Shown in pieces: positions 3,572 to 38,966 of a stretch of 49,677 nt of DNA. A model generated the notes under the pieces. It searched no databases. It was not told where the DNA came from and saw only the letters and a list, made by a program, of their open reading frames with translations. Both the position numbers and the translations under genes were made by a program. Location of the stretch: the NCBI GenBank assembly GCA_036005825.1, contig DASYQG010000691.1, positions 1 through 49,677 on the forward strand, in the 5' to 3' direction. This DNA is from Chitinophagaceae bacterium. Lineage in GTDB: Bacteria > Bacteroidota > Bacteroidia > Chitinophagales > Chitinophagaceae. Each line of letters opens with the position of its first letter. The first letter of the stretch is position 1.

Positions 3572-3805
3572 AAGCAAGGTTTGTATGGTTAATGTTTGTG
3601 ATACAAATATGTATCGATGCAATAAAAAATGAAAAGGCATTTTAGTGGAAACCCATTTACTTTGAGCATGAAGGCAACTATCATGATTCAGGCTTGAAAA
3701 ATGTCCCCGATGTCCGCGAGAATTTCATAGTCTCCACTTTATTAAAAACGAATAGAAAAGAACCTCCATGTTTACACATGAAGGTCTTTATGATTGAACC
3801 GTCCC

Positions 3806-8500: not shown

Positions 8501-8780
8501 GATTGTTTGATACAACCAGGTTCTGGCATTTTGTAAGCTCGGATAAGCCATTTAAATTGGCAATGTCTGCTCCGGAAATAGTAATCGTTCCGTTAACCTG
8601 AGTAAAGTTGAAAGCATTAACCTGCGCCTGGGTGCTGAGGGTAATATCTCCATTAAGCACCTGTGCATCTAATTTTGAAAATGAGAACACGAACAGTGCG
8701 AGCTGAAACGCTACTACAAAACCAACTGTTCTTGCATAAGCATTCAAAAGTGATTGCAGATAAGAATATATTTTTCTCAT
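5538..8780 (-). CDS. giant secreted LRR + HYR-like adhesin-like protein with conserved stalk module and T9SS C-terminal sorting domain
   Basis: The N-terminal ~400 aa are leucine-rich repeats (..LTNLNGLS.L..I.G.L.I..N..L). These are followed by an HYR-like segment (FPVGTTIITWTANDAAGN), one C.N.FTLTRTYKATD repeat, and then the module shared with 860..3571. It ends FPNPSTNNFTVSL...GTYFVRILQGKEHKEIKLVKL. Confidence 0.85.
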   Translation of the reverse strand: MRKIYSYLQSLLNAYARTVGFVVAFQLALFVFSFSKLDAQVLNGDITLSTQAQVNAFNFTQVNGTITISGADIANLNGLSELTKCQNLVVSNNPILTSVIGLANLGEVEHNLTIRNNSTLTNITGFSNLTTVGNLPADVLTIDNNDELLNVDGLFSLTFATKFIIGGNAKLTNLNGLSALTFVEHSFIVSSNPLLTSLAGLSHLTSISSLSSNLASDNLIIDNNDALTNVNGLSGVVFVGGLAIRNNAALTNLDGLSNLEDAKYGGIVIENNPGLISIEGLSHVGPFCTDLKIINNASLANVDGLSGITGLTDIDAEHNLEIRNNVLLTNLNGLSSLVAISGDLVIDGNPALIDISGLSKLALIKEALRIKNNLLLPNIDGLLKLAKIHTLEITNNNALTNLNGLSALQLVVGTITITNNPALIDFCGLYNLFHTGAIGGAIIIKSNGANTVTIIPRAPVRVNAEPGLCSAVVSDLLIGSATVEGCLVPISGSHSDFPTGNVFPVGTTIITWTANDAAGNVATGSQLVIVTDNQRPVIISSPGNITVSCTADVPAPDITSVTAIDNCSDVTISHMGDVKTNETCVNRFTLTRTYKATDAHNNTATCAQVITVNDDVSPQITGLSVSKEILTPPNHKMQDITVNYTISDNCVSSPGITFTVTSNEPDNGTGDGDTNNDIEIIDNHHIRLRAERAANGNGRIYKILVTADDGCNSITKDSIEVRVVHNINNPQSGKPFIVGSTINFEGEFWDKPANKHTAKWLIDDNTTVKAIVTEPSGDKNGKVSGSYKFTAPGVYKLQMNVTDQTGVTHYTNTAGDLEAIVVIFDPNGGNTYGGGYFNSPSGALKSNPSATGKASYGFAMNYFKNSTYPKGETQFEFKVGTFEFNALNFEYLVISNSMAQFKGTGKITGGQSGVGFTMTVVDGQLDGSGVDKIRMKIYNKSNGSIIYDNQPGASDAALPTQSVGLNSTVVISGTNSSLTSANTNQKTEMEASATEVSNGLAVIAFPNPSTNNFTVSLNGNDKAEKITMQVVDMYGRIIETRNVNANSLIRFGDRYNPGTYFVRILQGKEHKEIKLVKLSH
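5541..6929 (-). repeat. ~1.4 kb C-terminal coding module paralogous to 863..2233
   Basis: Same conserved motif order as 863..2233. Similarity rises toward the 3' end of the gene. Confidence 0.85.
7431..8648 (-). repeat. leucine-rich repeat array (~22-24 codon periodicity) inside the 5538..8780 CDS
   Basis: Recurring N(L/V)(N/D)GLS.L..(I/V)...L.I..N..L(T/I) units span aa ~45-450. The periodic sequence also produces the spurious antisense ORF 7735..8601. Confidence 0.8.
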
Positions 8781-23257: not shown

Positions 23258-25903
23258 CTATTGTACAAATAATTTCAACACGACATCTTTTTGATCTTTC
23301 CTGGTTATCCGCAACAGGTTTATTCCTTTGCTTAATCTTCCGGCAGGTAATTGATTACTGATATCATTTAAATTCATTTCATAAATTTTCTGCCCCTGCA
23401 TGTTGATCACCTGCAACGTTGCCGGCTCAAACTGGTTATCAGAAAGAATCGTTATGAGAGAATATTGAGATGCAGGATTTGGATACACTATAAACTCTGC
23501 ACCATTGAAGTAATAAACTGTTTCAACGGAAGAATAAATAACTCTGCCGCCTGCCAACTCAAGTTTAACCCGGTAAACATTTAAACCTTTCTTTAATGAT
23601 GCATCAATAAAATTCGCTGATAAAGAAGTAGGATTTACAATTTGTTGCAGCGTTACATACTCAGTGCCATTAAATTTTTCCAGAACAATCTTATTGATGT
23701 TATATAATGTGCCAAGTGAAATAGTGAGTTGCGCAGAATTCCCAACAAGCAAAGCAAGAAAAGAACGGAAATAACATTCAACCCCTTGCGTAATATAATT
23801 AAAAGTATAACTCTTCACTCCTTCTTTGCTTCCAATAATTGGCGCCACTGCATAATGCAATGAAGGATTTACAGCTTTTGAAAGTAGCATGAAACTATCT
23901 GTTGTTACAGCTATTGGTTCGAGATATTTACTTCCAAGTTTATAAACCCGGTAATTTGTAATACCGGGTAATTTATTCCAGTAAAATAAAAATGAGTCCG
24001 GGCAGTTGAAACCAACACCAGTAACAGTTCTGTTTGCAATGGTAAATGTATCGCTTGTAAAAACATTTGAGCCAATAGTCATGCGAAGTAAACCAATGCT
24101 TGTTACAGAAGGAACAGTCCAATTGTAATGGCCAGTATTCAGATCAACAGAATTCTGGATCGGTTGCCAGCTATTTCCACCTGTACTAAATTCAAGAATT
24201 CCATTTGCATTTGCAAAAGATGATTTCCACCTGATCGTATTGTTTGCCGATGGAAAAATAAAATCATTAGTTGTTGGAAATTGCCATTCAAATTTATCTA
24301 CTGAATCCAATTGCCATGCTATATGAAAATTTTGCGAAGCTGAAGTAACATTAAAACCAGTTACTTTAAGTTGATAACTACCGGCAGCAGGGTTATCAAT
24401 TGTTATTTGTTCGATATTATTCAGCGTATCTCTTTTTCTTTTTGCTAGCTGTACTAAAGAATCAATATGCGGAAAAGAGTTTAAAACCCAGGGCTGCCAT
24501 GTTTGACCAGATGAAATTTCTTTCAACTCAAGATCAAGGTCATTTATCAATGCTTTTGTTGCATTGGGAGCGGCTGGCGGGTCATTCCAAATCAATGTTG
24601 CTTTTAATTTTTTTACTCCAGCCGGTACAGAAATAGTAAATGATTGACTTGATGAATTAGAAACACTGCCAGCAAAAAATCTATTTGCCTGTAAAGTTTT
24701 CAGTGCATTATTAGCATTCAAACTTCCAAATCCATTTTTATAATCAATCTCAGCATTGCCAACATCGTCGGCGCTATTGATAAGAATTGCTTTTATCAAT
24801 GAATTTGGCGGCAAACTTCCGTTTACCTGTTTATATAAATGTTGAAGCAGTAGTGATGTTCCTGACACCAATGCTGCAGCACCTGAACTTCCATCTTCGC
24901 CAAAAGCAACTAATTCAGGTTTTACTCTTCCATCATGTGCTGGGCCTTTTGAACTTAATGCAGCCACGATGGAAAAAGAATCTGTTGCTCCAACTGTAAG
25001 AATATTTTTAGCCATCTTAAAACTGCCCGTAAGATTTGCAAAACCATTTATTCCGGTGTAAATGCCTGTACTTGCAGAAGAAGTTCCCGAATTACCGGAA
25101 GAAAAAATATGTAGCAATGATCCATTCGTGATCGCACTTGCATCATAAGCAGCTGCATCTGCTCCATAATAGCTTTCAACACCTACTCCATAAGAATGAT
25201 TTTGAACAGAAATATTGTATTGCTGGTAAGCACTATTTGCATCTGGCAATAAAACAGCAAAGCTCGATGAGCTAATAGTGCTTCCCCATGCAGCGCCTTT
25301 TCCCAAATGCCAGCTATTGGCTCCGCCTGCGATCATTGTTGACATAATAGAAGCATGAGAGCTAACAGTGTTTGATGAAAGATTGGTTGAAAGAAATCTT
25401 CCTTTGAAATCAATGTCTGTAGTATCGGGTTTATTTTCTTTTACAGATACTGTTATTCCATCACCATTTACCAACGGAAAATTCCTATGAGCAAGATTTA
25501 TTTTATTTACTGACAGATCAAGATTGCCAACCTGTATTTCCTCTTTAGGGATCCTGTTTCCTTTTTCAATAAAAATTATTCCAGGTAATGGCAAAAGATC
25601 AGAGTTTATTTCTTCTGCAGTTGCAACTAACCTATAAACTGAAAACGCCGAAGACTCAAATATTTTTTGAGTTTGATAAACAGATTTCCAATTCTCGTTG
25701 GGTACTTTATCATTTCTGATCGCAACCTCAAGTAAAAGCTTGCCTGTAATTTTGGTATCCCTTATTTCCCTTGATAAACCCGGGGAAAGTTTTGGGTTAT
25801 CAATTAATTGGGCAAAAGAACAATGCGTAATGAATACACTAGCTAAACCGATCACAAACCTCACAATATAAACATACATTTTCCGCCAACAGATAGTTTT
25901 CAT
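23258..25903 (-). CDS. S8-family (subtilisin-like) serine peptidase with T9SS C-terminal sorting domain
   Basis: His block SHASIMSTMIAG, oxyanion block VQNHSYG, Ser block DGSSGAAALVSG. C-terminus VYPNPASQYSLITIL...GINLLRITRKDQKDVVLKLFV. An alternative start is at 25879. Confidence 0.8.
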   Translation of the reverse strand: MKTICWRKMYVYIVRFVIGLASVFITHCSFAQLIDNPKLSPGLSREIRDTKITGKLLLEVAIRNDKVPNENWKSVYQTQKIFESSAFSVYRLVATAEEINSDLLPLPGIIFIEKGNRIPKEEIQVGNLDLSVNKINLAHRNFPLVNGDGITVSVKENKPDTTDIDFKGRFLSTNLSSNTVSSHASIMSTMIAGGANSWHLGKGAAWGSTISSSSFAVLLPDANSAYQQYNISVQNHSYGVGVESYYGADAAAYDASAITNGSLLHIFSSGNSGTSSASTGIYTGINGFANLTGSFKMAKNILTVGATDSFSIVAALSSKGPAHDGRVKPELVAFGEDGSSGAAALVSGTSLLLQHLYKQVNGSLPPNSLIKAILINSADDVGNAEIDYKNGFGSLNANNALKTLQANRFFAGSVSNSSSQSFTISVPAGVKKLKATLIWNDPPAAPNATKALINDLDLELKEISSGQTWQPWVLNSFPHIDSLVQLAKRKRDTLNNIEQITIDNPAAGSYQLKVTGFNVTSASQNFHIAWQLDSVDKFEWQFPTTNDFIFPSANNTIRWKSSFANANGILEFSTGGNSWQPIQNSVDLNTGHYNWTVPSVTSIGLLRMTIGSNVFTSDTFTIANRTVTGVGFNCPDSFLFYWNKLPGITNYRVYKLGSKYLEPIAVTTDSFMLLSKAVNPSLHYAVAPIIGSKEGVKSYTFNYITQGVECYFRSFLALLVGNSAQLTISLGTLYNINKIVLEKFNGTEYVTLQQIVNPTSLSANFIDASLKKGLNVYRVKLELAGGRVIYSSVETVYYFNGAEFIVYPNPASQYSLITILSDNQFEPATLQVINMQGQKIYEMNLNDISNQLPAGRLSKGINLLRITRKDQKDVVLKLFVQ

Positions 25904-29382: not shown

Positions 29383-30348
29383 ATGATAAGAATAATTTGT
29401 TCGATCACATTTTTATGTTTTTCAATTACGATATTCTCACAAAAACCAAAAACGGTTACAGTTAGCACTCAAAAGCCAACTGCACCAAAACCCGTAGCAC
29501 CCAAACTACTGAAAGACCTGCGTGATTCTGCAAGCTATACTGCAGGAATACATATAGTGAATAAATACCGCTCTCAGAATATTTACAATTTTAACGGCGC
29601 AGTTGTTGCAAAGGCGTGTAATGATCTGCAATCAAATAACCCGCAACTGATAACTAATTCTGATGCAGATAGTGCAGTAATGGCTTATCAAAGTCAATTA
29701 ATGGCGGATCCGAAAAAGACGGTGAAGCCACCTGTAACAGGTGTTGTTTTAAATGATATGAGAGATTCGGCGAGCTATGCAGCCGGTATTTATCTTATAA
29801 GCTTTTTTCGTGAATTTGATATTACCAATTTTAATCCTGCCATTATAACAACAGCTATTAACGATCTGCAAAGTCAAAAAAAACCTTTGCTGAATGACAG
29901 CCTTGCAAATATGGTTGCCATGAGGTACCAGTCAAAATTACAGGAAGTAAAAAATAAACCAAACATCGATGCTGGGAAAAAATTTTTAGCAGAAAATAAA
30001 AAAAGACCCGGTGTAAAAGTTACACCAAGTGGCTTGCAGTACGAGATCATTACAGTTGGAACGGGAAATAAGCCCACAAAAAAAGACAAAGTATCTTGTA
30101 ATTACACAGGTGCATTTATTGATGGCACTGAATTTAATAATTCCTATAAAATGGGAGGCCCTATTTCATTTGACGTAAATGGAGTAATCAAAGGCTGGAC
30201 CGAAGCCTTGCAGATGATGCCTGTAGGTTCAAAATGGAAGTTGTATGTTCCTTATAATTTGGCATATGGCCCGGGGCAATATCAAACAATACCCGGTGGA
30301 TCTGCATTGGTCTTTGAAATAGACCTGCTCGAGATCGTGAGTAAATGA
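29383..30348 (+). CDS. FKBP-type peptidyl-prolyl isomerase with duplicated N-terminal (FKBP_N-like) domain
   Basis: C-terminus VKVTPSGLQYEIITVGTGNKP...NGVIKGWTEALQMMPVGSKWKLYVP...ALVFEIDLLEI. Two N-terminal copies of L.D.RDSASY.AGI.......NFN.A......NDLQS. Confidence 0.85.
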   Translation: MIRIICSITFLCFSITIFSQKPKTVTVSTQKPTAPKPVAPKLLKDLRDSASYTAGIHIVNKYRSQNIYNFNGAVVAKACNDLQSNNPQLITNSDADSAVMAYQSQLMADPKKTVKPPVTGVVLNDMRDSASYAAGIYLISFFREFDITNFNPAIITTAINDLQSQKKPLLNDSLANMVAMRYQSKLQEVKNKPNIDAGKKFLAENKKRPGVKVTPSGLQYEIITVGTGNKPTKKDKVSCNYTGAFIDGTEFNNSYKMGGPISFDVNGVIKGWTEALQMMPVGSKWKLYVPYNLAYGPGQYQTIPGGSALVFEIDLLEIVSK

Positions 30349-31359
30349 TCAATCAAGATTATGTTTCATTTCAGCGATCTGTGAACGGGTACCAAACACA
30401 ATTACTTTGCAGCCTTCAGTTACCAGCGTTTCACCAGGTGGATTAATAATAAATTTACCTTCCTTGTTTTTTATTCCTAAACAATTCACTCCTGTTTTAT
30501 TCCATTCCATTACTATTTTAAGTGATTTATCTTTTATCGCTGGAGGTAATTGGTTATAAGGAACGGATTCCATATTTACTGATTCACCATCTTCACTTGA
30601 AAGAAAATCCATGAACTCGATCACATCAGGTTTTGATACAAGAGTTGCCATATGAGAACCGCCGATCTTATCAGGCATAATAACATTATCAGCACCCGCC
30701 TTTCTAAGTTTTGGATAAGAACTTTCCTCCGATGCTCTACTGATGATTTGTAGTTTTTGATTCAGCGCTCTTGCAGAAAGAACGATAAAAACATTATCTG
30801 CATCCACCGGCAATGCAGTTATTAAAGCAACAGCTTTTTCAATACCGGCTTTTTTCAAAAGGTCATCATCAGTTCCATCACCAACCAAATAAACAAGTTC
30901 AGGAAAAAAGGGCAATGCTTTTTCCATTGATCCTTCTTCTTTCTCAATTACCACAAAAGGCATGTTATGATTTTTTAATGTCCTTGCTGCCTGTTGCCCG
31001 TTTCTTCCAAAACCGCAAAGAATAACATGGTTATTTAGTTGAGTAATTGCTTTCATATTCTTTCTCGTTTTAAAATATTTGTTGATCTCACCAGTAATAA
31101 CAAATTGCGTAATGCGTGCAATGGCCCAGGCAAAAGTGATCCAGCTTGTGATCAATAAAAAAATAGTAAACAAACGGCCTGAATCACTCAGCGGTCTTAC
31201 TTCGCTAAACCCGACAGTAGTAATGGCGATCGTGGTCATGTACAACGCTTCCATAAATGTATATCCTTCGATAGCCATATAACCAAAGATGCCAATGAGG
31301 ATAATAAAATGCAGAACAAGGAATGGTTGAAGAAGCCTGTATGTCCAGTGTCCCGGCAT
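30349..31359 (-). CDS. two-TM pore potassium-channel-family protein with RCK (TrkA-N/TrkA-C) domains
   Basis: Pore helix and filter region YMTTIAITTVGFSEV. Rossmann motif VILCGFGRNGQ. There is a C-terminal TrkA-C-like segment. Confidence 0.8.
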   Translation of the reverse strand: MPGHWTYRLLQPFLVLHFIILIGIFGYMAIEGYTFMEALYMTTIAITTVGFSEVRPLSDSGRLFTIFLLITSWITFAWAIARITQFVITGEINKYFKTRKNMKAITQLNNHVILCGFGRNGQQAARTLKNHNMPFVVIEKEEGSMEKALPFFPELVYLVGDGTDDDLLKKAGIEKAVALITALPVDADNVFIVLSARALNQKLQIISRASEESSYPKLRKAGADNVIMPDKIGGSHMATLVSKPDVIEFMDFLSSEDGESVNMESVPYNQLPPAIKDKSLKIVMEWNKTGVNCLGIKNKEGKFIINPPGETLVTEGCKVIVFGTRSQIAEMKHNLD

Positions 31360-31457
31360 TTTTTACTTTCTATAAAAGTAAATTAGTATTGTGGTTTTTA
31401 GAAATGAGTTTGCCCATATCTGTCCATGGTTTTTTTATGAAATTTTCCTTATCGAAA

Positions 31458-31511
31458 TAAAAAAGGGGTGGCTCGAAGACCACCCCCGCCGTTGGTTAAA
31501 ACCTTGTAGTC
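31458..31511 (-). terminator. conserved 3' flank + terminator, copy A (after 31512..33059)
   Basis: Stem ggggtgg (31465-31471), loop ctcgaaga, stem ccacccc (31480-31486). The A-run on plus is the T-run on minus. This is followed toward the gene by cgccgttggttaaaaccttgtagtc, which abuts the stop codon. Confidence 0.85.
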
Positions 31512-33059
31512 TTAACGCTTTTTAACTACTATTTTTTCCACTGTTTGTTCTCCCGTTTCTGTGTCAATAATTCGAATAGTATAAAAACCTGCCGTTAGAT
31601 TATCTATTTGAATATTATTATTAGCAATGCCTTTCCATTGTTTCATAACACGGCCATTCATATCCATAAGTGATACATCCCGGATAGTATTTACATCTGC
31701 AAACACCACATTTACTCTACCATCATTGCTTGGATTTGGATAAATAATGGTTTTCCCTTTTTGCCCACCTGCTCTTACTGCACGTATTGGACTAAAAGCT
31801 TGTTTGCCATCAATATCAATTTGCCGCAAACGATACTGAGATATTCCTTTTGCATTATTAAGATCTGAATATTCATAGTTGAGAAGAGAGCTACTATTGC
31901 CATTCATCGCTTTAGTTGGAACAAACCCCAGGTTTTGCCAAACATTATTGCCAAGATTTCTTTCAATATAAAATCCCCTGCTGTTTACTTCAGTTGCTGT
32001 TTCCCATCGCAAAAGAACAGTAGAATTATTCCGTGAAGCCGTAAATGATCGCAAAGTAACAGGCAATGTAGAACATAGCGCCTCTACTACCGGGGTAACT
32101 AAAGTATTTGAAAACTCTTGTCCTGTAACCTCAACAAATAGTCCCCATTGTGAAAATGGTTCAGTGCAGCAATATGGCGCAGGCAAATTAACAGCACCCG
32201 ATGAATATGGAGTGGAAGAATTCAATGTAATAGTTCCCGAAGTAAATAAAAGTGGATCGTCACCACCCGGTTCTCTTACACCGTCCAAATCATCAGCATA
32301 TACTTTATACACTACATGTATGTCTACAGGACTTGATGATGTAAGACCTACAGAGTATTGAAGAGTTGGGCCGCATAGCTTTTGAAGAGCAATTGTTGGA
32401 TCGCCAAAAGATTGTCCTACACCACAAACATAACATTGCGCTTTCGGATCAGGAGCATTTGAATTAGATCCCCAAACATCTGTTTTGATTATTACAGGAG
32501 TACCGCATGAAGTATTAAGAACTATGGTGATGTTAGTAATCTCAAAATGTAAAGTGTCAGAATTATCTCTTTTGGTTACTATTGCGGTCAATCCTGGAGA
32601 GTTAGAAGGTTGAGTTAGTGCAACACTTGGATCATGCGGAAAAACAGTTGCAATGAAAGCCGTAACATCTAATGGTACATCGGGAGTAAACACAAGATCA
32701 TTCAACCCTTTAAATCCAAAATCAAAAAAAGATTTTCCCGGCTCACCAACCTGGGTCCCTAATTGCAAACTTGTTCCCGGATCGACTGCAGGTGTGTTGC
32801 CGCCGCAATTAAATATGGGAGGATTAGGATAGTCCGCCAACAGCCATGAATGCACAAAAAGATATTTGAAACCCGAATTAGTTATAATGTCAAATGATGC
32901 ATTAAATGTGTATTGACATTGATTAGGACCTAACGGAACCGGCGGCTGTGAGCCTGAGGTTGCCAGGTTAGCAAACGCAATATCGCATTGTGCTTTAAGA
33001 GAATTAAAAGAAAACAGAGCTCCGCTAATTAGAAAAAGAAAGAGTAAAAACTTTTTCAT
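31512..33059 (-). CDS. secreted protein of unknown function, long-head member A of the four-gene family, with T9SS C-terminal sorting domain
   Basis: Signal peptide MKKFLLFLFLISGALFSFNSLKA. Head homologous to 36012..37622. Shared C-terminal module LPVTLRSFTASRNNSTVLLRWETA...IIYPNPSNDGRVNVVF...GFYTIRIIDTETGEQTVEKIVVKKR. Confidence 0.85.
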   Translation of the reverse strand: MKKFLLFLFLISGALFSFNSLKAQCDIAFANLATSGSQPPVPLGPNQCQYTFNASFDIITNSGFKYLFVHSWLLADYPNPPIFNCGGNTPAVDPGTSLQLGTQVGEPGKSFFDFGFKGLNDLVFTPDVPLDVTAFIATVFPHDPSVALTQPSNSPGLTAIVTKRDNSDTLHFEITNITIVLNTSCGTPVIIKTDVWGSNSNAPDPKAQCYVCGVGQSFGDPTIALQKLCGPTLQYSVGLTSSSPVDIHVVYKVYADDLDGVREPGGDDPLLFTSGTITLNSSTPYSSGAVNLPAPYCCTEPFSQWGLFVEVTGQEFSNTLVTPVVEALCSTLPVTLRSFTASRNNSTVLLRWETATEVNSRGFYIERNLGNNVWQNLGFVPTKAMNGNSSSLLNYEYSDLNNAKGISQYRLRQIDIDGKQAFSPIRAVRAGGQKGKTIIYPNPSNDGRVNVVFADVNTIRDVSLMDMNGRVMKQWKGIANNNIQIDNLTAGFYTIRIIDTETGEQTVEKIVVKKR

Positions 33060-33061
33060 GG

Positions 33062-33072
33062 TACAAGGTTTT
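33062..33072. repeat. 5' arm of the inverted motif (tacaaggtttt), 2 nt after the start codon complement of gene A
   Basis: The plus strand reads cat-gg-tacaaggtttt. It is the reverse complement of the aaaaccttgta motif next to the stop codon at 31498-31508. Confidence 0.7.
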
Positions 33073-33366
33073 AAATGAATAAATATGAATAATGGTTACA
33101 AGGGACATGGAAGACAGTCGCATAAGCATAAAAAGTAAACCGTCCAAATGCCGGATGTACAAAAACCTAACCACTATTTTATTTAGGGATTTTCACTATT
33201 TAAATAAGTCATTTTGTGATATCTAAACCTTGAGCTGTGGAGAAATGAGTAACGGTGATTTTAAAAATTGGGGAATATTTTAAACATACTTAAATGTTCA
33301 AGAAAAATAATACCGCTCAGTAAAAGTAAATTTACTGTTCGTTTTTGTTTCAGTATCCATCAATAG

Positions 33367-33417
33367 AAAAGGGGCGGCACGAAAACCGCCCCCGCCGTTG
33401 GTTAAAACCTTGAAGCT
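33367..33417 (-). terminator. conserved 3' flank + terminator, copy B (after 33418..34371)
   Basis: Stem ggggcgg (33371-33377), loop cacgaaaa, stem ccgcccc (33386-33392), then cgccgttggttaaaaccttgaagct abutting the stop. Confidence 0.85.
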
Positions 33418-34371
33418 TTAACGCTTGTTTACAACGAACTTTTGTACTTCCTGTTCGCCGGTTTCATTATTTATTATTCTTGCAGTGTATATACCTGCTG
33501 TAAGATTATTAACCACAATATTATTAGTAATTATCCCTTTCATTTGCTTGATAACGCGGCCACTCATATCGCTAACTGATACATCACGAATACCGTCCAC
33601 ATCATCAAAAACGATGGTGACTTTACCATCGCTGCTTGGGTTAGGATAAATAATGGACTTACTTTTTTGACCCTCGCCTCGTACTGCACGAATTTCACTG
33701 AATTTGGATCTCCTGTCAATGTCAATTTGTTTAATGCGGTATTGACTGATACCTTTCGTTTGATTCAGATCAGCATAAGTATAAGTAAGATCGGATGCGC
33801 TATTACCGCCGGTTGCCTGGCTTGCAATAAACGAAAGAGTTTGCCAGCTGCCGCTGCCGATCAATCGCTGAATTTCAAAACCAAGATTGTTGCTTTCTGT
33901 AGCCGTTGTCCATTTCAAAGCAACTACACTGTTGCTCCGTGAAGCGGTGAACGTGCCGAAGGCAACAGGAAGAGTTCCCTGCTCACCGCATGGAGTTCCA
34001 TTATAAGAAATAAGAAATCTAAAGAGTTCATTATGGCCCTGGAGATTATTATTTCTGTTTGGCCCTGCGTAGTAGCAATATTTTACATCTCCGTTATTTA
34101 GCAATGTTCCCGGACCAAAATTAATGTCTGTCAGTAATTGCTGATTAAGAGGATCAGTAATATCGAAAATGCTGATAATCGCGGGTATACTAAGCGGATC
34201 AATTAACCCATCAAATGATAAAGTTATAGTTCCCGTCGCAGAAGCTCCGTTTACATCCGGGCAGCTACCACCTCCGTTGTTAATTTTATAATCACCGACA
34301 CATGGTGTTTGGGAAGAAACAAGGCTTGCTATTGACACCATCACTAAAGATAAAAGTAGATTCTTTTTCAT
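33418..34371 (-). CDS. secreted protein of unknown function, short-head member B of the four-gene family, with T9SS C-terminal sorting domain
   Basis: Signal peptide. Head QTPCVGDYKINNGGGSCPDVNGASATGTITLSFDG.... The C-terminal ~190 aa are nearly identical to 34721..35674. Confidence 0.85.
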   Translation of the reverse strand: MKKNLLLSLVMVSIASLVSSQTPCVGDYKINNGGGSCPDVNGASATGTITLSFDGLIDPLSIPAIISIFDITDPLNQQLLTDINFGPGTLLNNGDVKYCYYAGPNRNNNLQGHNELFRFLISYNGTPCGEQGTLPVAFGTFTASRSNSVVALKWTTATESNNLGFEIQRLIGSGSWQTLSFIASQATGGNSASDLTYTYADLNQTKGISQYRIKQIDIDRRSKFSEIRAVRGEGQKSKSIIYPNPSSDGKVTIVFDDVDGIRDVSVSDMSGRVIKQMKGIITNNIVVNNLTAGIYTARIINNETGEQEVQKFVVNKR

Positions 34372-34384
34372 ACTACAAGGTTTT
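34372..34384. repeat. 5' arm of the inverted motif (actacaaggtttt), abutting the start codon of gene B
   Basis: The plus strand reads cat-actacaaggtttt. Confidence 0.7.
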
Positions 34385-34669
34385 ATGGTTTAAAAAATAA
34401 TTTCCGGTAATCAGAAATAAAGATTAAAAGCCTTGCTGATGATTAAATACAGATAAATTTCAAGTCAATGCCTTTTGGCTTTTCAGAAAAAATATTTGCC
34501 AGACATTGGAGCGGTGCCCATCATAGGTTATGCCTTCAGAAGTTACTAGTCAGAGATTTTGAGAATGAGAATACAAGTCCGGTATCTTCATAAGAGAATG
34601 GAGAGATGAAAATTTTGCATCTTCAAGTTACAAAAAAATAAAAGTGATAAAAAATATTTTATCCAAATA

Positions 34670-34720
34670 AAAAGGGGCGGCTCGAAGACCGCCCCCGCCG
34701 TTGGTTAAAACCTTGAAGCT
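34670..34720 (-). terminator. conserved 3' flank + terminator, copy C (after 34721..35674)
   Basis: Stem ggggcgg (34674-34680), loop ctcgaaga, stem ccgcccc (34689-34695), then cgccgttggttaaaaccttgaagct abutting the stop. Confidence 0.85.
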
Positions 34721-35674
34721 TTAACGCTTGTTTACAACGAACTTTTGTACTTCCTGTTCGCCGGTTTCATTATTTATTATTCTTGCAGTGTATATACCTG
34801 CCGTAAGATTATTAACCACAATATTATTAGTAATTATCCCTTTCATTTGCTTGATAACGCGGCCACTCATATCGCTAACTGATACATCACGAATACCGTC
34901 CACATCTTCAAAAACGATAGTGACTTTACCATCGCTGCTTGGGTTAGGATAAATAATGGACTTACTTTTTTGACCCTCGCCTCGTACTGCACGAATTTCA
35001 CTGAATTTGGATCTTCTGTCAATGTCAATTTGTTTAATGCGGTATTGACTGATACCTTTCGTTTGATTCAGATCAGAATAACTATAAGTAAGATCGGATG
35101 CGCTATTACCGCCGGTTGCCTGGCTTGCAATAAACGAAAGAGTTTGCCAGCTACCGCTGCCGATCAATCGCTGAATTTCAAAACCAAGATTGTTGCTTTC
35201 TGTAGCCGTTGTCCATTTCAAAGCAACTACGCTGTTGCTCCGTGAAGCGGTGAAGGTGCCGAAGGCAACAGGAAGAGCTCCCTGCTCAACACATAAAGCT
35301 CCACCAGCATAAGTAATAAGGAATCTGAACTTTGAATTATGTCCTGCAAGATTATTGTTATTAGCTGGCCCGACGTAGTAGCAAAATTTTACATCGCCGC
35401 TATTAAGCAATAATCCCGGACCATAGGTTATGTCCGTCACTAAAAACTGGTTAAGAGGATCAGTGATATCGAAAACACTGACAATTGTGGGTATATTGAG
35501 CGGATCAACAGGCCCATCGAATGTTAAGGTTATAGTGCCAGTCGCCGAAGTTCCGTTTACATCAGGGCAGCTACCACCACCATTGTTAATTTGGTAATCA
35601 AGAACACAAGGTGTTTGCGAAAAACCAATTACCGATGATACCATCAATAAAAATAAAAGTAGATTCTTTTTCAT
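34721..35674 (-). CDS. secreted protein of unknown function, short-head member C of the four-gene family, with T9SS C-terminal sorting domain
   Basis: Signal peptide. Head QTPCVLDYQINNGGGSCPDVNGTSATGTITLTFDG.... Shared C-terminal module and CTD. Confidence 0.85.
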   Translation of the reverse strand: MKKNLLLFLLMVSSVIGFSQTPCVLDYQINNGGGSCPDVNGTSATGTITLTFDGPVDPLNIPTIVSVFDITDPLNQFLVTDITYGPGLLLNSGDVKFCYYVGPANNNNLAGHNSKFRFLITYAGGALCVEQGALPVAFGTFTASRSNSVVALKWTTATESNNLGFEIQRLIGSGSWQTLSFIASQATGGNSASDLTYSYSDLNQTKGISQYRIKQIDIDRRSKFSEIRAVRGEGQKSKSIIYPNPSSDGKVTIVFEDVDGIRDVSVSDMSGRVIKQMKGIITNNIVVNNLTAGIYTARIINNETGEQEVQKFVVNKR

Positions 35675-35687
35675 GCTTCAAGGTTTT
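35675..35687. repeat. 5' arm of the inverted motif (gcttcaaggtttt), abutting the start codon of gene C
   Basis: The plus strand reads cat-gcttcaaggtttt. It is a perfect 13-nt reverse complement of aaaaccttgaagc at 34707-34719, next to the same gene's stop codon. Confidence 0.75.
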
Positions 35688-35961
35688 ATTAATTAATAAA
35701 AAGATTTACCAGGATCCAGATAAAAACATCCGGGCCGAAGAATAAATATTTTAATCTTTAGACAGCGCCGTTTGGCTTTTCAGGAAAAAGCTCTTGATAG
35801 GATCTTGAAGTCGCAGGATCACAGGTTACGATTAAAGAATTTACTGGTCAGAATGTTTGGCGGAGATAAAATCAATCCCGGGTTTCTCAATGGAGAGTAA
35901 AGTAGTGTAAATTATAGATTTAAGGTAGCAAAAATTTTAACTGATAAAAAAAATTATTTAA

Positions 35962-36011
35962 AAAAGGGGTGGCTCGAAGACCACCCCCGCCGTTGGTTAA
36001 AACCTTGAGCT
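35962..36011 (-). terminator. conserved 3' flank + terminator, copy D (after 36012..37622)
   Basis: Stem ggggtgg (35966-35972), loop ctcgaaga, stem ccacccc (35981-35987), then cgccgttggttaaaaccttgagct abutting the stop. Confidence 0.85.
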
Positions 36012-37622
36012 TTAACGCTTGTTTACAATGAATTTCTCTACTACCTGTTCCCCTGTTTCTACATTCACAATTCGTACAGTGTAAAATCCTGAATTGAGGT
36101 TATCAACCTGGATCGTGTTATTAGTAACTCCTTTCCATTGTTTTATTGTTTTTCCGCTTACATCCATCAAAGACACATCGCGAGGACTATCTGCATCTTC
36201 AAACACAATATTTACTTTGCCATCTCCACTTGGGTTAGGGTAAATAATTGTTTTGGCTTTTTGTCCCTCACCACGAACCGAGCGGATCAAACTGTAAGCA
36301 TTTTTTCCGTCAATATCAAATTGCCTGAGTCTGTATTGAGAAATTCCTTTTGCATTATTGAAATCACTAAACTCATAAGTAAGAGTTGAGGTGCTGTTAC
36401 CGTTAAGTGCTTTTGATTCAACAAAGTCAATATTTTGCCATGCTCCATTTGATAATTTGCGCTGAACATAGAACCCTTTGTTATTTTGTTCTTGCTCTGT
36501 TTCCCATTTTAAATCAACGTAAGAAGTGTTTTTGCGAACAGCATTGAATGATTTCAAATTTATCGGAAGTGTTTCGCAAGATTGATCTGCTGTCCTTGAT
36601 ATGGCATTGTCATAAAGACCAGGTACCGTTACATCTAGCCTAATTGATGCATAATTTGCCGCTCCACTCGCATAAAAAGCACTGTAAGTAGCATAGTCAA
36701 GCGTTATAGTTCCAGAAGAAAAACTAGAAGGAGGAACATCTGCAGAATTTGCACTTAGCATTACATCTCCTTCGTACACGAGGTACTCGTCAAATGGCGG
36801 CAATACGTCCACAAAATATACTTTGTAGTGATAGGTATATGCCGCAGATATCGCAGTACTGATTGAAAAAGAAAATTGACGAGGAGCGCCACATAAAGAA
36901 CTTAACGCCAAAGTTGGATCGTTAACTGATGTACTTTGACCACATATATAGCATTGAGCACCAATTTTAGATTTAGAAGGCTGACCGCCGCTTCCTTGAG
37001 CATTTGTTCCCCAAACATCCGTAATAACAGTAAGTGGTTGGCAAGGGCCTAATACTTCCACTACTATTCCGGTTATTATGAAATGCAAAGTATCGGTGGC
37101 AGTTCTTGTAATTGTGGCATTTGTTGCAGTATTTAAGGCAACCAATTGGCCATTATTATTGTCGTTGTTTGGATATTCCCCAGTCACCGCTATTTTATTG
37201 GTTACATCTACTGTCGTGTTAAGTGGAAACGTCACAGTATTTAGACCAATAAATCCCAAATCTAATATCGAGGCTCCTGCCTCAAAAATAGTGTCTCCCA
37301 ATTGTGTTACATTACCTGGAGAAATGTTAGGTGTGTGCCCACCAATAGGGGCATTGGGGTCACAATTGAATACATTTGGATAATTGCTTTGCAACCATGA
37401 GTGAAAAAACAAATATTTAAATCCTGAATTAGTCTTGATATCGAATTCAGCATTGAAAGTGACTCGGCATCTGACAGGGTCAGTTGCGCTTCCGGTTCCA
37501 ATTTGTTGGCCGGGCTGTGCGTCAATTTTCACATTACTAAGTCCAAGGTCACATTGCGCTTTTGCAGTGTTAACAATCGCAAAACTGCAGATTGTCAAGA
37601 AGAAAAGTAAAATCTTTTTCAT
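36012..37622 (-). CDS. secreted protein of unknown function, long-head member D of the four-gene family, with T9SS C-terminal sorting domain
   Basis: Signal peptide MKKILLFFLTICSFAIVNTAKA. Head KAQCDLGLSN...FNAEFDIKTNSGFKYLFFHSWLQSNYPNVFNC is homologous to member A. Shared module LPINLKSFNAVRKN...IIYPNPSGDGKVNIVF...GFYTVRIVNVETGEQVVEKFIVNKR. Confidence 0.85.
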   Translation of the reverse strand: MKKILLFFLTICSFAIVNTAKAQCDLGLSNVKIDAQPGQQIGTGSATDPVRCRVTFNAEFDIKTNSGFKYLFFHSWLQSNYPNVFNCDPNAPIGGHTPNISPGNVTQLGDTIFEAGASILDLGFIGLNTVTFPLNTTVDVTNKIAVTGEYPNNDNNNGQLVALNTATNATITRTATDTLHFIITGIVVEVLGPCQPLTVITDVWGTNAQGSGGQPSKSKIGAQCYICGQSTSVNDPTLALSSLCGAPRQFSFSISTAISAAYTYHYKVYFVDVLPPFDEYLVYEGDVMLSANSADVPPSSFSSGTITLDYATYSAFYASGAANYASIRLDVTVPGLYDNAISRTADQSCETLPINLKSFNAVRKNTSYVDLKWETEQEQNNKGFYVQRKLSNGAWQNIDFVESKALNGNSTSTLTYEFSDFNNAKGISQYRLRQFDIDGKNAYSLIRSVRGEGQKAKTIIYPNPSGDGKVNIVFEDADSPRDVSLMDVSGKTIKQWKGVTNNTIQVDNLNSGFYTVRIVNVETGEQVVEKFIVNKR

Positions 37623-37635
37623 GCTTCAAGGTTTT
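37623..37635. repeat. 5' arm of the inverted motif (gcttcaaggtttt), abutting the start codon of gene D
   Basis: The plus strand reads cat-gcttcaaggtttt. Confidence 0.7.
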
Positions 37636-38282
37636 TTGTCCCAATGTATCGGGACGATTTTAATAAATAGTTTTTACAGTTAACGAATACTACCCTTCGG
37701 CTTTATTTTTCGGGGTAGTGTATATGATGATTTAATTCATCCACTTGTTAGTGGTGATTCATCAGGAGGTTGGAAACCTTGGCATTCAGAATAGGAAGGG
37801 ACTTATCATGCCTGCGGCAGACATGGGCTTGGGTTAGCTCAATAGATAATTGGGACTGATAGTTCAGAAGTATTGGAGAATTCTTTGTACTATAATGATC
37901 ATTGCAAAAAGCAACAAACATTGCAGCTACACAGTAGAGTTCAAACGAAATGGATTTTTTTAACCAACGGCTTTTTAGATAGGAGAGTGAAATTTCGGGA
38001 GGATCGATTTCTCAATCAGGATGCTAAAATAAAGCATAGATTTTAGAACTGCAAATAGATCGCGAAAATTTCTTTTATAAATTAAAAACTATTCTGTCGT
38101 TAAACCCCTACACCCCAGTGCTGGAAAGCCTGTTCAGTCCAAGACATACCACCTTATTCGCACTCAAATGCATGGTTAAAGCATATCAAAGACATGGCAA
38201 AAGCGTTCGAATTGGCATAATCACTACCCTCGCGTCCATCCTGACTAACCGAGAACTCATGCCCGTTTCTTGAAATAGCAGA

Positions 38283-38966
38283 TCAGGCACCAATGATTTT
38301 CTTTGCCAGCTTTTCCACCTTCTGAATGGTCTCCTTAGCAGTCAGGTTGGTATTATCCACTAAGATCGCATCATCAGCTTTTCGCAGAGGACTTTCTTCG
38401 CGGTTACTGTCAATATAATCCCGCATTTCAAGATTTGCTTTTATTTCTTCGATCGTAACGTTAGGATTTTTTTCAAACAGCTCTTTAAATCTTCTTTCCA
38501 CTCTCACCGCATTATCAGCTGTCAAAAAGATCTTTAATTCGGCTTTGGGAAAAACAACAGTACCAATATCACGGCCGTCCATTATCACCCCTTTCTTTTT
38601 GCCCATTAGTTGTTGTTGCTCGACTGCAAATTTTCTTACTTCTTTAATGGCAGCCACGTCACTTACTTTCTCCGCCACTACAAGGTCGCGGATCACATAT
38701 TCCACATTTTCGCCGTTCAAATGCATTTCGCTTTGCTGGCTTTTATCATTGTAAATAAATTCAAGTGAAATTTCTTTCAATGCGCTTTTTACTTCATTCT
38801 TATCTGTCCAGTCCACATGATTACGCAAAAAATAAAGTGTAATGGCACGGTACATAGCACCACTATCGACATACAGATAGCCTAATTCTTTTGCAAGCTC
38901 TTTGGCCAAAGTGCTTTTGCCACAGCTACTCCATCCATCAATTGCTATGATAATTTTTTTCGCCAT
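38283..38966 (-). CDS. cmk: (d)CMP kinase
   Basis: IIAIDGWSSCGKSTLAKELAKELGYLYVDSGAMYRA (P-loop and cytidylate kinase N-terminal signature). Also GRDIGTVVFP. Size is 227 aa. Confidence 0.9.
   Translation of the reverse strand: MAKKIIIAIDGWSSCGKSTLAKELAKELGYLYVDSGAMYRAITLYFLRNHVDWTDKNEVKSALKEISLEFIYNDKSQQSEMHLNGENVEYVIRDLVVAEKVSDVAAIKEVRKFAVEQQQLMGKKKGVIMDGRDIGTVVFPKAELKIFLTADNAVRVERRFKELFEKNPNVTIEEIKANLEMRDYIDSNREESPLRKADDAILVDNTNLTAKETIQKVEKLAKKIIGA

Follow-up and report, generated by a model that had tools for sequence, protein, structure and literature searches.

Background

Cargo proteins of the T9SS with a type A C-terminal sorting domain (CTD) are released from the cell or become anchored to its surface. 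They consist of a Sec signal, an N-terminal functional part and an Ig/FN3-like sandwich in front of a CTD of about 75-80 amino acids, and in RgpB of P. gingivalis, for example, the order is functional domain, Ig-like domain and CTD. The fold of the T9SS CTD has been described (PMC11285876), and the exposure of an N-terminal Gln after signal peptide cleavage is the Q-rule of Bacteroidetes (PMC5837995). Base pairing between the 5'-UTR and the 3'-UTR is known from the icaR mRNA of Staphylococcus aureus (PMC3868564), and a 5'/3'-UTR interaction from the hbs mRNA of B. subtilis (PMC5737220). Bacteroidia do not use Shine-Dalgarno sequences (PMC6847099, PMC7797042).

The locus described here is an array of four intact genes in tandem on the minus strand of contig DASYQG010000691.1 (assembly GCA_036005825.1) from an uncultured Chitinophagaceae bacterium. 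The whole stretch of DNA analysed, 49,677 nucleotides, is referred to as the window. The encoded proteins have the domain order of RgpB and share the motifs YPNP...GxY...K(I/V)(I/V)V with type A cargo, and NCBI names their relatives, which are Chitinophagaceae proteins, 'T9SS type A sorting domain-containing protein'. The proteins are of an ordinary kind, with two types of tip that are uncharacterised and mutually unrelated; it is the RNA signals around each gene and the leader in front of the array that set the locus apart. We read the array as a set of modular, T9SS-exported display-protein cassettes of Chitinophagaceae, residing in a long-lived hotspot next to cmk and carrying heads that are most likely ligand-binding. 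The probability of this reading as a whole is put at roughly 0.7.

Organisation of the array

All four genes are ORFs with matches to PF18962 and TIGR04183, and their coordinates agree exactly with the ORF list of the initial annotation. The genes, their parts and the spacers between them are as follows.

36012..37622, minus strand: gene A, 536 aa; signal peptide aa 1-22 (37557-37622), long Cys-rich head aa 23-350 (36573-37556), FN3-like stalk aa 351-455 (36258-36572), type A T9SS CTD aa 456-536 (36015-36257)
34721..35674, minus strand: gene B, 317 aa; signal peptide aa 1-19, short 4-Cys head aa 20-132 (35279-35617), stalk aa 133-237 (34964-35278), CTD aa 238-317 (34724-34963)
33418..34371, minus strand: gene C, 317 aa, paralog of B; head aa 21-132 (33976-34311), stalk 33661-33975, CTD 33421-33660
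31512..33059, minus strand: gene D, 515 aa; signal peptide aa 1-23, long head aa 24-330 (32070-32990), stalk 31755-32069, CTD 31515-31754
35675-36011, minus strand: spacer upstream of B, 337 nt
34372-34720, minus strand: spacer upstream of C, 349 nt
33060..33417, minus strand: spacer upstream of D, 358 nt

Four tandem ORFs with MKK signal peptides and spacers of 337-358 nt, each ORF with its own hairpin terminator, had been proposed initially, and this layout was recovered in full. Homologs of gene A number 92-212, and their architecture is identical in all cases.

Sorting domain and stalk

The type A CTD proposed initially was confirmed by HMM searches, in which all four proteins scored above the cut-offs of TIGR04183 (44.8, 47.4, 47.3 and 47.9 bits; cut-off 23) and PF18962 (41.3-44.5 bits, E 2e-10 to 2e-11; cut-off 27). 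The domain covers the last ~80 amino acids, the matches stopping 2-3 residues short of the C-terminus in each protein. The sole PDB sequence match of the array proteins is 8glk_D, a solved T9SS CTD. By inspection, each of the four signal peptides has MKK, a hydrophobic core and a small-x-small motif followed by Gln, and the predicted signal-peptidase I sites (AKA|Q, FS|Q, SS|Q and KA|Q) would expose this Gln. Two further CTD-bearing cargo genes were found in the window, in keeping with T9SS use by the organism, and a CTD-bearing S8 peptidase is encoded 6 kb from the array. Since the 49.7-kb window holds no gene of the T9SS machinery, T9SS dependence of the array proteins rests on the CTD model and the lineage.

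These matches support the assignment of the four genes to one family of T9SS type A cargo, and we infer the export route and a surface location from it. The pre-protein would cross the inner membrane via Sec, after which signal peptidase I would expose the N-terminal Gln and the Cys-rich, all-beta head would fold in the periplasm. The type A sorting domain would then carry the protein through the T9SS for release or cell-surface anchoring, and the FN3-like stalk would act as a spacer between the sorting/anchor end and the head, which would be the functional part and most likely bind a ligand.

The C-terminal module of ~190 amino acids (stalk of ~105 amino acids plus CTD) can be aligned across all four genes. 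Its nucleotide identity is 98% between B and C and 65-66% between the head types, so that the 'one shared module' of the initial annotation holds as homology and fails as identity. AF2 models are all-beta (pLDDT 83.7 for gene A) and confident for stalk and CTD (pLDDT 80-93), and Foldseek matches these parts to tandem FN3 pairs, PorU and PorZ. For the short protein, whose model has a pLDDT of 81-93 in the stalk and which was searched as a whole, the best matches are tandem FN3 pairs over ~200 columns. At the sequence level, one of ten stalk members reaches fn3 (PF00041; E 3.4e-5) and the other nine do not. The stalks of the window stay short of the PF00041 threshold, their best match (E 0.027) being to an unrelated family; a stalk profile found no match among PDB sequences. 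The models thus favour an FN3-like beta-sandwich in front of the CTD, in line with the beta-sandwich spacer suggested earlier.

Head domains

The long heads of A and D are homologous to each other (57% nucleotide identity), and so are the short heads of B and C (79%). Long and short heads are unrelated, with an HHalign probability of at most 1%, and neither has a family match in Pfam, NCBIfam or PDB sequences, nor did Foldseek assign a family. The earlier description of two unrelated heads outside any named family is therefore upheld. The long head has eight invariant or near-invariant Cys; most of its invariant residues are Cys, Gly, Asn/Asp or aromatic. The short head has four Cys and an AF2 model of low confidence. 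Both are predicted to be Ig-like beta-sandwiches, for the short head at that low confidence. Foldseek matches to adhesins score a TM of just ~0.15-0.25 and are explained by generic Ig/FN3 beads.

The short-head family comprises 23 representative clusters among 1.84 billion proteins. The head (NNGGGxCP...YCYYxGP) is also found embedded among HYR_4C (PF23237) repeats in three proteins (P0112-P0114), an indirect pointer to a plausible binding or adhesin role of the heads; a structural or enzymatic role would be less likely. HYR_4C proteins of 926 aa and 1080 aa are also encoded in the window. Head swapping on a common frame, as proposed initially, is real and extends further than claimed: the same stalk and CTD carry other heads of ~35 to ~1590 aa, among them LTD-like, Ice_binding-like and several unknown ones.

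History of the locus

The array is syntenic and adjoins cmk in many Chitinophagaceae. Across the loci compared (L001-L017) the flanks are constant (cmk; K-channel, FKBP and GIY-YIG) and the content of the array varies, with at least five head types among cassettes that were gained, lost and recombined at this hotspot. Seventeen fossil cassettes are reduced to the tail of the CTD and the 3' UTR. The long-short-short-long order recurs in L002 with a head protein identity of only ~52%. In L002, L004 and L008 the array ends with an ortholog of gene D.

Modules cluster by array position and not by genome (A-A 77-83%, D-D 77-91%, A-D within the window 66%). The paralogs predate the divergence of the sampled genomes, and the local amplification suggested initially is not supported as a recent event; the array is old. 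Genes B and C, in contrast, share a gene-conversion tract.

34670..35288, minus strand: B copy of the tract, covering stalk, CTD, 3' UTR and terminator
33367-33985, minus strand: C copy of the tract

Over ~610 nt the two copies are ~98% identical, against 58-88% on either side, and the edges are sharp. The B and C orthologs of L002 share 79% identity in the module. The conversion between B and C of the window is the only recent event in the array. One conserved frame, with 5' arm and signal peptide at one end and stalk, CTD, 3' UTR and terminator at the other, holds the different heads, and cassettes would be gained, deleted and recombined via homologous frame sequences. Recombination of this kind is the probable mechanism of head swapping.

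Terminators and spacers

Each gene is followed by an intrinsic terminator, starting 23-24 nt after the stop codon and made of a 9-bp GC-rich stem with 6-7 GC pairs and a T-run.

35965..35988, minus strand: terminator hairpin of A
34673-34696, minus strand: terminator hairpin of B
33370-33393, minus strand: terminator hairpin of C
31464-31487, minus strand: terminator hairpin of D

Between inner and outer genes the stem shows a compensatory change of C:G to T:A, and across genomes covariation was found as C-G/U-A and G-C/A-U. The spacers carry blocks conserved across genomes, for example CTTTTCCTGAAAAGCCAAACGGC, and have a mean column identity of 69% (nine spacers from seven genomes). As no promoter was recognised in the spacers, and no TAnnTTTG box on their coding strand, it is the terminators together with the conserved spacers that point to separate transcription, in which each cassette would form its own transcription unit.

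Complementary arms and leader

In all four genes the 13 nt before the ATG are the reverse complement of 13-14 nt after the stop codon. The arms abut the ATG and the stop codon, respectively, and the 3' arm is followed by an invariant linker, AACCAACGGC.

37623..37635, minus strand: 5' arm of A, AAAACCTTGAAGC
35675-35687, minus strand: 5' arm of B
34372-34384, minus strand: 5' arm of C, AAAACCTTGTAGT
33060-33072, minus strand: 5' arm of D, AAAACCTTGTACC
35999..36011, minus strand: 3' arm of A, AGCTCAAGGTTTT
34707-34720, minus strand: 3' arm of B
33404-33417, minus strand: 3' arm of C
31498-31511, minus strand: 3' arm of D, GACTACAAGGTTTT
35989-35998, 34697-34706, 33394-33403 and 31488-31497, minus strand: linkers of A, B, C and D

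Family genes account for 61 of 62 occurrences of the 3' arm at stop codons, and 46 copies of the linker 10-mer were found in 3' UTRs of the family. The duplex energy of the arms is -14.5 to -21.1 kcal/mol in the four window genes, and a duplex of -12 kcal/mol or stronger is formed by 48% of family genes against 1.7% of other ORFs. Arm cells are paired in 85% of cases in register and in 25-57% when slid. Where the arms vary, G·U is commoner than A·C (38 against 5 cells, yet 8 against 5 variant classes), a preference that would make sense only for sense-strand RNA. A U·U mismatch persists in C-type genes, the 5' arms of some D-type genes are degenerate and pair weakly, and in a distant clade the pairing is kept with a different 3' sequence and extends into the AUG. 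The arm framing is family-specific and appears to tolerate G·U changes.

Upstream of gene A, the first in the array, lies a leader of ~460 nt.

37623..38085, minus strand: leader
37962-37971, minus strand: leader segment GCCGTTGGTT, complement of the 3' UTR linker
37774-37782, minus strand: leader segment CCAAGGTTT, complement of the 5' arm
~37689-37719, minus strand: leader helix CUACCCC/GGGUAG
37638-37655, minus strand: terminal hairpin of the leader

Complementarity of the leader thus extends to the 5' arm and to the 3' UTRs of all four genes. Of its 45 homologs, 30 are complete copies, which are 74-91% identical (lowest 69%) and all end in the 5' arm and ATG. Covariation in the leader helices amounts to 44 double-change cells against 15.9 +/- 3.0 in shuffles, a value reached by none of 500. 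Rfam cmscan of 31000-38400, with E up to 1, returned only a chance snoRNA match within gene B. The leader would be a structured RNA that has not been described previously, and arms and leader together suggest post-transcriptional control of the array genes. Arms and leader were absent from the initial annotation.

Alternative explanations

The heads could be enzymes that the cell secretes, for instance glycoside hydrolases, proteases or lyases of unrecognised type, and the array would then encode isozymes exported via the T9SS. Many type A cargoes are hydrolases, the S8 peptidase is close by and the heads are uncharacterised. However, neither the sequence nor the fold of the predicted Ig-like sandwiches matches a catalytic family, no catalytic constellation can be recognised among the invariant residues of the long head and the short head doubles as an insert in HYR_4C repeat proteins, and we regard enzymes as improbable. 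Far less credible still is that the repeats around genes and spacers are DNA recombination sites, which would make the locus an inverton (of promoters) or a shufflon (of cassettes) serving phase or antigenic variation. Invertible promoters are common in Bacteroidota, and here inverted repeats of 13-14 bp flank spacers of ~340 bp just upstream of surface-protein genes. Nevertheless, 45 of 45 homologous spacers are oriented as their genes, and 143 3' UTR elements in 92 metagenome stretches are all co-directional within their contig. Flipping would deprive the upstream gene of its terminator, singleton genes have both arms, the preference for G·U fits RNA, and at the locus no recombinase is found among the immediate neighbours (cmk, S9 peptidase, K-channel, FKBP and a GIY-YIG/RNase_T protein).

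It is also conceivable, if doubtful, that the 5'/3' complementarity and the leader are functionless and merely result from shared ancestry and recurrent gene conversion of the frame. The B/C conversion does reach through the 3' UTR and terminator, the weakly pairing D-type genes would fit, and only 14 arm cells show a true double compensatory change, a number reached in 19 of 500 shuffles. Against this, arms and linker are near-invariant across genomes and paralog types next to coding DNA of only ~65% identity, and conversion within a genome does not explain conservation between genomes. The distant clade, moreover, retains the pairing despite its different 3' sequence, and the leader covariation is statistically supported.

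Comparison with known systems

Compared to typical T9SS cargo, the display-protein cassettes have heads that fit no described family and stand in a syntenic, variable array, where the ~105-aa stalk travels with the CTD and the non-coding flanks as one frame. The short head links them to the HYR_4C repeat proteins of Bacteroidota, but in the short-head genes of the window there is no HYR repeat and the head sits directly on stalk and CTD.

As in icaR and hbs, a 3' UTR segment would pair with the translation-initiation region of the same gene, and from pairing of that type an effect on translation and/or decay is expected. The target in the array is the 13 nt abutting the AUG and not a Shine-Dalgarno sequence, and the 3' arm abuts the stop codon. 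Furthermore, the feature spans a whole gene family with differing heads in many genomes, and an upstream leader adds further complementary segments.

The invertible promoters and shufflons of Bacteroidota likewise have short inverted repeats a few hundred bp apart, upstream of surface-protein genes, and arrayed variable repertoires. The array differs in having no flipped copy (45 spacers, 143 elements) and no adjacent recombinase, and in that one repeat sits between stop codon and terminator. With integrons it shares an array of co-directional cassettes of varying content, each with a conserved imperfect-palindrome element at its 3' end. It has no integrase, however; each cassette has a conserved upstream spacer of ~340 nt and its own terminator, and the conserved frame includes coding sequence for signal peptide, stalk and CTD.

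Gene array and domain layout

The initial annotation described four minus-strand ORFs in tandem, and we found these ORFs and their spacers (337, 349 and 358 nt) at exactly the same coordinates. They are referred to as A, B, C and D, where A and D carry a long head and B and C a short head.

Genes of the array and its flanks (window coordinates)
36012-37622, minus strand: gene A, ORF, 536 aa
34721-35674, minus strand: gene B, ORF, 317 aa
33418-34371, minus strand: gene C, ORF, 317 aa
31512-33059, minus strand: gene D, ORF, 515 aa
38283-38966: cmk, flank on one side of the array
30349-31359: TrkA-type K-channel gene, flank on the other side
29383-30348: FKBP isomerase gene, same side as the K-channel gene

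The alignment of A-D gives a layout of signal peptide, head, stalk of approximately 105 aa and C-terminal domain (CTD) of approximately 80 aa. All four proteins start with MKK and a hydrophobic stretch, and the predicted signal-peptidase I site exposes Gln, consistent with the Q-rule of Bacteroidetes (PMC5837995). Each gene has an intrinsic terminator, a 9-bp GC-rich hairpin with a T-run, 23-24 nt past the stop codon. One compensatory change, C:G to T:A, separates the terminator stems of the inner genes from those of the outer genes, and the stem covaries across genomes. Signal peptides and individual hairpins are thus present in all four genes, as first described. The proposed type A T9SS sorting domain was checked by HMM search, and all four C-termini passed both PF18962 (E 2e-10 to 2e-11) and TIGR04183 (44.8-47.9 bits; cut-off 23). 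No match besides the T9SS type A CTD models was found for A-D in Pfam or NCBIfam. A PDB sequence search with the full proteins returned a solved T9SS CTD, 8glk_D, as sole match, and the stalk profile found no relative in PDB.

The AF2 model of A is all-beta (pLDDT 83.7), with two beta-sandwich regions in the head (approximately residues 23-195 and 196-350) preceding stalk and CTD. For B, the model has a confident stalk and CTD (pLDDT 80-93) and a low-confidence head (45-75). Foldseek against PDB with both models gave generic Ig/FN3 bead chains only, at TM 0.1-0.3, among them FN3 pairs of sDscam and contactin, PorU, PorZ, Bap, SdrD and SiiE. As these matches are Ig/FN3 bead chains, the stalk is probably FN3-like by predicted fold, which agrees with the beta-sandwich spacer suggested earlier; by sequence, one of ten stalks reached fn3 (E 3e-5).

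Head domains

Among the motifs of the long head are FDIxTNSGFKYLFFHSW and AQCYICG, and eight of its Cys are invariant or near-invariant. The short head contains four Cys, and its motif is NNGGGxCP...YCYYxGP. MAFFT aligned some motifs of the two, and we therefore considered the short head as a trimmed long head. HHalign did not bear this out: the probability never exceeded 1%, whether the short head was compared with the whole long head or with either half, and the idea was rejected. The two heads are mutually unrelated and, with no match in Pfam, NCBIfam or PDB, fall outside named families, as the initial annotation had it.

Long-head relatives numbered 92 by single query and 212 by profile, and the best 120 were all approximately 510-530 aa with the same head-stalk-CTD layout. 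Those carrying a name came from MAGs of Chitinophagaceae or Flavitalea and were annotated as 'T9SS type A sorting domain-containing protein' or 'hypothetical protein'. The 212 relatives, found with a profile of the long head only, revealed no new architecture and no informative name. The short head is rare, with 23 representative clusters among 1.84 billion proteins. In a word-indexed search its 11 relatives were all truncated at or before the shared module (stalk plus CTD). The database relatives of the short-head proteins, P0093-P0103, all break off close to the head/module junction, and P0103 is chimeric, with a short-head N-terminus joined to a long-type CTD. The truncations and the chimera fit assemblies breaking or collapsing on multi-copy, near-identical module DNA.

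Three of the representatives have the short head inserted between HYR_4C repeats, which indicates an autonomous domain of adhesin-like repeat proteins. This embedding is the only functional hint for either head. The window itself encodes a 926-aa protein with four HYR_4C repeats (860-3640, minus strand) and another of 1080 aa that has a T9SS CTD besides HYR_4C, PKD-like and LRR-like hits (5538-8780, minus strand).

Judged as proteins, A-D are very likely T9SS cargo on a modular frame. The fold of the type A CTD has been reviewed (PMC11285876), and by what is known of such cargo the proteins would be exported by Sec, fold in the periplasm with disulfides, be translocated by the T9SS and finally be released or anchored at the surface. 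The stalk would serve as spacer and the head as ligand-binding tip. We assign this overall reading, modular-frame T9SS cargo with a ligand-binding head tip, a probability of roughly 0.7. For the heads taken separately, a role as binder or adhesin has about even odds, and the main rival at the protein level, enzymatic heads, seems unlikely. The proteins belong to a known class, type A T9SS cargo, and what is new are the two head domains and the defined FN3-like stalk. The T9SS cargo pool of soil Bacteroidota is very large, and two uncharacterised heads and one stalk+CTD 'display frame' are added to it here.

Arms framing each gene

The spacer alignment showed that each ATG is preceded by 13 nt (5' arm) whose reverse complement, 13-14 nt long, begins immediately after each stop codon (3' arm). 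The 3' arm is followed by an invariant linker, AACCAACGGC, and then by the terminator.

Arms of the four genes
37623-37635, minus strand: 5' arm of A, AAAACCTTGAAGC
35675-35687, minus strand: 5' arm of B, AAAACCTTGAAGC
34372-34384, minus strand: 5' arm of C, variant ...GTAGT
33060-33072, minus strand: 5' arm of D, variant ...GTACC
35999-36011, minus strand: 3' arm of A, AGCT(T)CAAGGTTTT
34707-34720, minus strand: 3' arm of B, AGCT(T)CAAGGTTTT
33404-33417, minus strand: 3' arm of C, AGCT(T)CAAGGTTTT
31498-31511, minus strand: 3' arm of D, GACTACAAGGTTTT

Arms and linker are conserved better than coding DNA, both between paralog types and between genomes. They are also family-specific. Family genes account for 50 of the 52 start-associated and 61 of the 62 stop-associated occurrences within 1.17 Mb, and the remainder are family members truncated at contig ends. 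The elements are absent from neighbouring genes for S8-peptidase T9SS cargo. The one in the window (23258-25903, minus strand; 881 aa), which is syntenic in many related loci, has a T9SS CTD and no arms, and the frame is therefore not a general feature of T9SS cargo.

The predicted 5'/3' duplexes of the four window genes have energies of -14.5 to -21.1 kcal/mol, and a duplex of -12 kcal/mol or stronger is formed by 48% of family genes versus 1.7% of other ORFs. In a 48-sequence alignment 85% of the arm cells were paired, against 25-57% with the register slid. A distant clade has a different 3' sequence, (A)TGCTCAGGGTTTT, which still pairs via G·U, with pairing extending into the AUG, and D-type genes have a GUA/UAC swap relative to GAAGC/GCUUC. 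Non-Watson-Crick core cells were G·U in 38 cases and A·C in 5 (as variant classes only 8 versus 5). True double changes in the arms are few (14 cells, a count reached by 19 of 500 shuffles), a U·U mismatch persists in C-type genes, and the 5' arm is degenerate in some D-type genes. From these sequence comparisons, sense-strand RNA pairing of the arms is favoured but not proven.

Structured leader

The first framed gene is preceded by a conserved leader, which has homologs at 45 loci.

Leader features
37623-38085, minus strand: leader, approximately 460 nt
37962-37971, minus strand: invariant GCCGTTGGTT, exactly complementary to the linker AACCAACGGC that all four 3' UTRs contain
37774-37782, minus strand: invariant CCAAGGTTT, complementary to the 5' arm

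Thirty complete leader copies are mostly 74-91% identical (lowest 69%), and every copy terminates in the 5' arm and ATG. The leader is conserved whichever head follows: long, LTD-like or an unknown head of approximately 680 aa. A consensus fold of the 30 full-length leaders has several helices, and the formal covariation count covers the two 3' helices. Here 94.4% of the cells were paired versus 23-50% when slid, 44 double-change cells were observed versus 15.9 +/- 3.0 in shuffles (0/500 reaching the observed count), and the covariation score was 0.443 versus 0.228 (0/500). The frequent A-U/G-U and C-G/U-G alternations place the leader RNA on the strand of the genes.

Each locus has one copy of the segment GCCGTTGGTT, which in 14 of 15 occurrences lies 304-384 nt ahead of the first framed ATG, and AACCAACGGC occurs 46 times in family 3' UTRs. 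At one locus (L003) the linker of the first gene has two C-to-T changes, and pairing with the leader is still possible by G·U. Together, GCCGTTGGTT and CCAAGGTTT suggest alternative RNA-RNA pairings. No complementary leader was found in the distant clade, where AT-rich linkers give the test little power.

Leader, arms and spacers matched no Rfam family. A small ORF in the leader was rejected as well, since inspection of the leader copies showed its tiny ORFs to be unconserved. The spacers (35675-36011, 34372-34720 and 33060-33417) contain blocks that are conserved between genomes, among them the palindrome CTTTTCCTGAAAAG with CCAAACGGC after it. Scans of spacers and leader for sigma-70-type and Bacteroidota-type (TAnnTTTG) promoters gave none convincing, the TAnnTTTG box being absent from the coding strand of the spacers.

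Locus history and cassette turnover

On related contigs, arrays of stalk+CTD genes lie between cmk and K-channel/FKBP/GIY-YIG genes, and the window has these flanks too. One contig (L001) is without the K-channel gene, and its array adjoins FKBP directly.

Arrays at related loci
L002: 221-542-318-317-518 aa, long-short-short-long plus a divergent head-less gene
L004: long-short-long-long
L001: LTD-like head, long, long
L012 and L017: unknown head of approximately 685 aa, short, long; in L012 a further long

Other head combinations also occur. The long-short-short-long order, for which conservation in related genomes had been considered, recurs in L002; L001, L004, L012 and L017 have other orders. 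The 221-aa 'head-less' gene is located between cmk and the leader (L002:8813-9478 and L022:8782-9447) and consists of signal peptide, divergent stalk and CTD, with a different terminator and no 5'/3' arms. At 78 genome loci, almost all of them in uncultured Chitinophagaceae, the heads on the module range from approximately 35 to 1590 aa; one is Ice_binding-like, some are weakly LTD-like and most have no Pfam match. A related module gene is also present in Chitinophagaceae bacterium IBVUCB2.

Between genomes, module DNA identity is 77-83% for A-A, 77-91% for D-D and 73-92% for short-short pairs, versus 65-66% for A against D or B within the window. Module DNA clusters by array position and not by genome, which means that the paralogs predate the divergence of the sampled genomes. 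The proposed local amplification is therefore not supported as a recent event, and the locus is old and variable. The position-wise identities also led us to reject general within-genome concerted evolution of the module, except for the B/C pair. B and C are 98% identical in the module and 79% in the heads, versus 79% and 77% for the orthologous pair in L002.

Conversion tract, approximately 610 nt, 98% identity, sharp edges
34670-35288, minus strand: B copy
33367-33985, minus strand: C copy

In B the tract runs from the head/stalk junction (approximately 35288) to just beyond the terminator (approximately 34670), covering stalk, CTD, 3' UTR and terminator, and identity outside it is 58-88%. 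Judging by the DNA identity pattern, it arose by recent gene conversion.

Scanning metagenomes with the invariant 22-mer of the 3' UTR gave 143 elements in 92 stretches. Complete module genes precede 81 of these (47 long, 16 short and 18 other heads), and 17 follow fossils, i.e. tiny ORFs with the CTD tail only and an intact 3' UTR. Cassettes are therefore lost as well as gained. In the fossil cassettes (L095:2837-2945, L116:4907-5021, L125, L131:3641-3755, L137, L141, L142, L164 and L166) only the final CTD residues are left, with 3' arm, linker and terminator intact behind them, approximately 290-400 nt past the element of the previous gene.

Inverted repeats around each gene could also be read as an inverton or shufflon. 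This reading was rejected, as no flipped copy was found: 45 of 45 homologous spacers have the orientation of the genes, all 143 metagenome elements are co-directional within their contig, and there is no recombinase gene among the immediate neighbours. An integron-like reading was likewise rejected, as there is no integrase and the cassettes are not promoterless. The repertoire diversifies at a fixed chromosomal hotspot, with head exchange on a conserved frame, deletion fossils and gene conversion. The observation in the initial annotation is confirmed, and its interpretation is partly supported.

Proposed RNA control and comparison with known systems

Post-transcriptional control in Bacteroidia is poorly understood. 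Their ribosomes are SD-blind and use no Shine-Dalgarno pairing (PMC7797042), and both mRNA structure and the nucleotides that precede the start codon tune initiation (PMC6847099). We tentatively propose, and consider it rather doubtful, that the array is run by an undescribed RNA-level control circuit belonging to the cassette frame. The complementary arm abutting the stop could close the 13 nt before the AUG in every mRNA, which would bring start and stop side by side. The leader of the first gene holds a putative second anti-arm copy (CCAAGGUUU) and a 10-14-nt segment (GCCGUUGGUU) that could pair with the invariant linker beside the anti-arm in every 3' UTR of the array. With these two segments, joint opening or closing of all cassettes could be brought about by the leader itself or by an RNA processed out of it.

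The protein family alone is of modest interest, which is raised by the conserved RNA frame and the leader, and the non-coding findings matter more than the proteins. Pairing of start-abutting and stop-abutting arms would give a directly testable model of translation or decay control in the phylum. The same would hold for a covariation-supported leader of approximately 460 nt with complementarity to the 5' arm as well as to the 3' UTRs, and the two would be candidate new RNA families. If true, the circuit would be a family-wide 5'/3' UTR switch, coupled with a new cis/trans-acting RNA motif governing T9SS surface proteins.

The closest described analogues of these RNA features are the 5'/3' UTR pairing of icaR (PMC3868564) and the 5'/3' interaction of hbs (PMC5737220). 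In contrast to these, the target here would be the initiation region of a Bacteroidia mRNA that has no SD, and the two arms directly adjoin the start codon and the stop codon. The feature is also family-wide and accompanied by a structured leader with matching segments.
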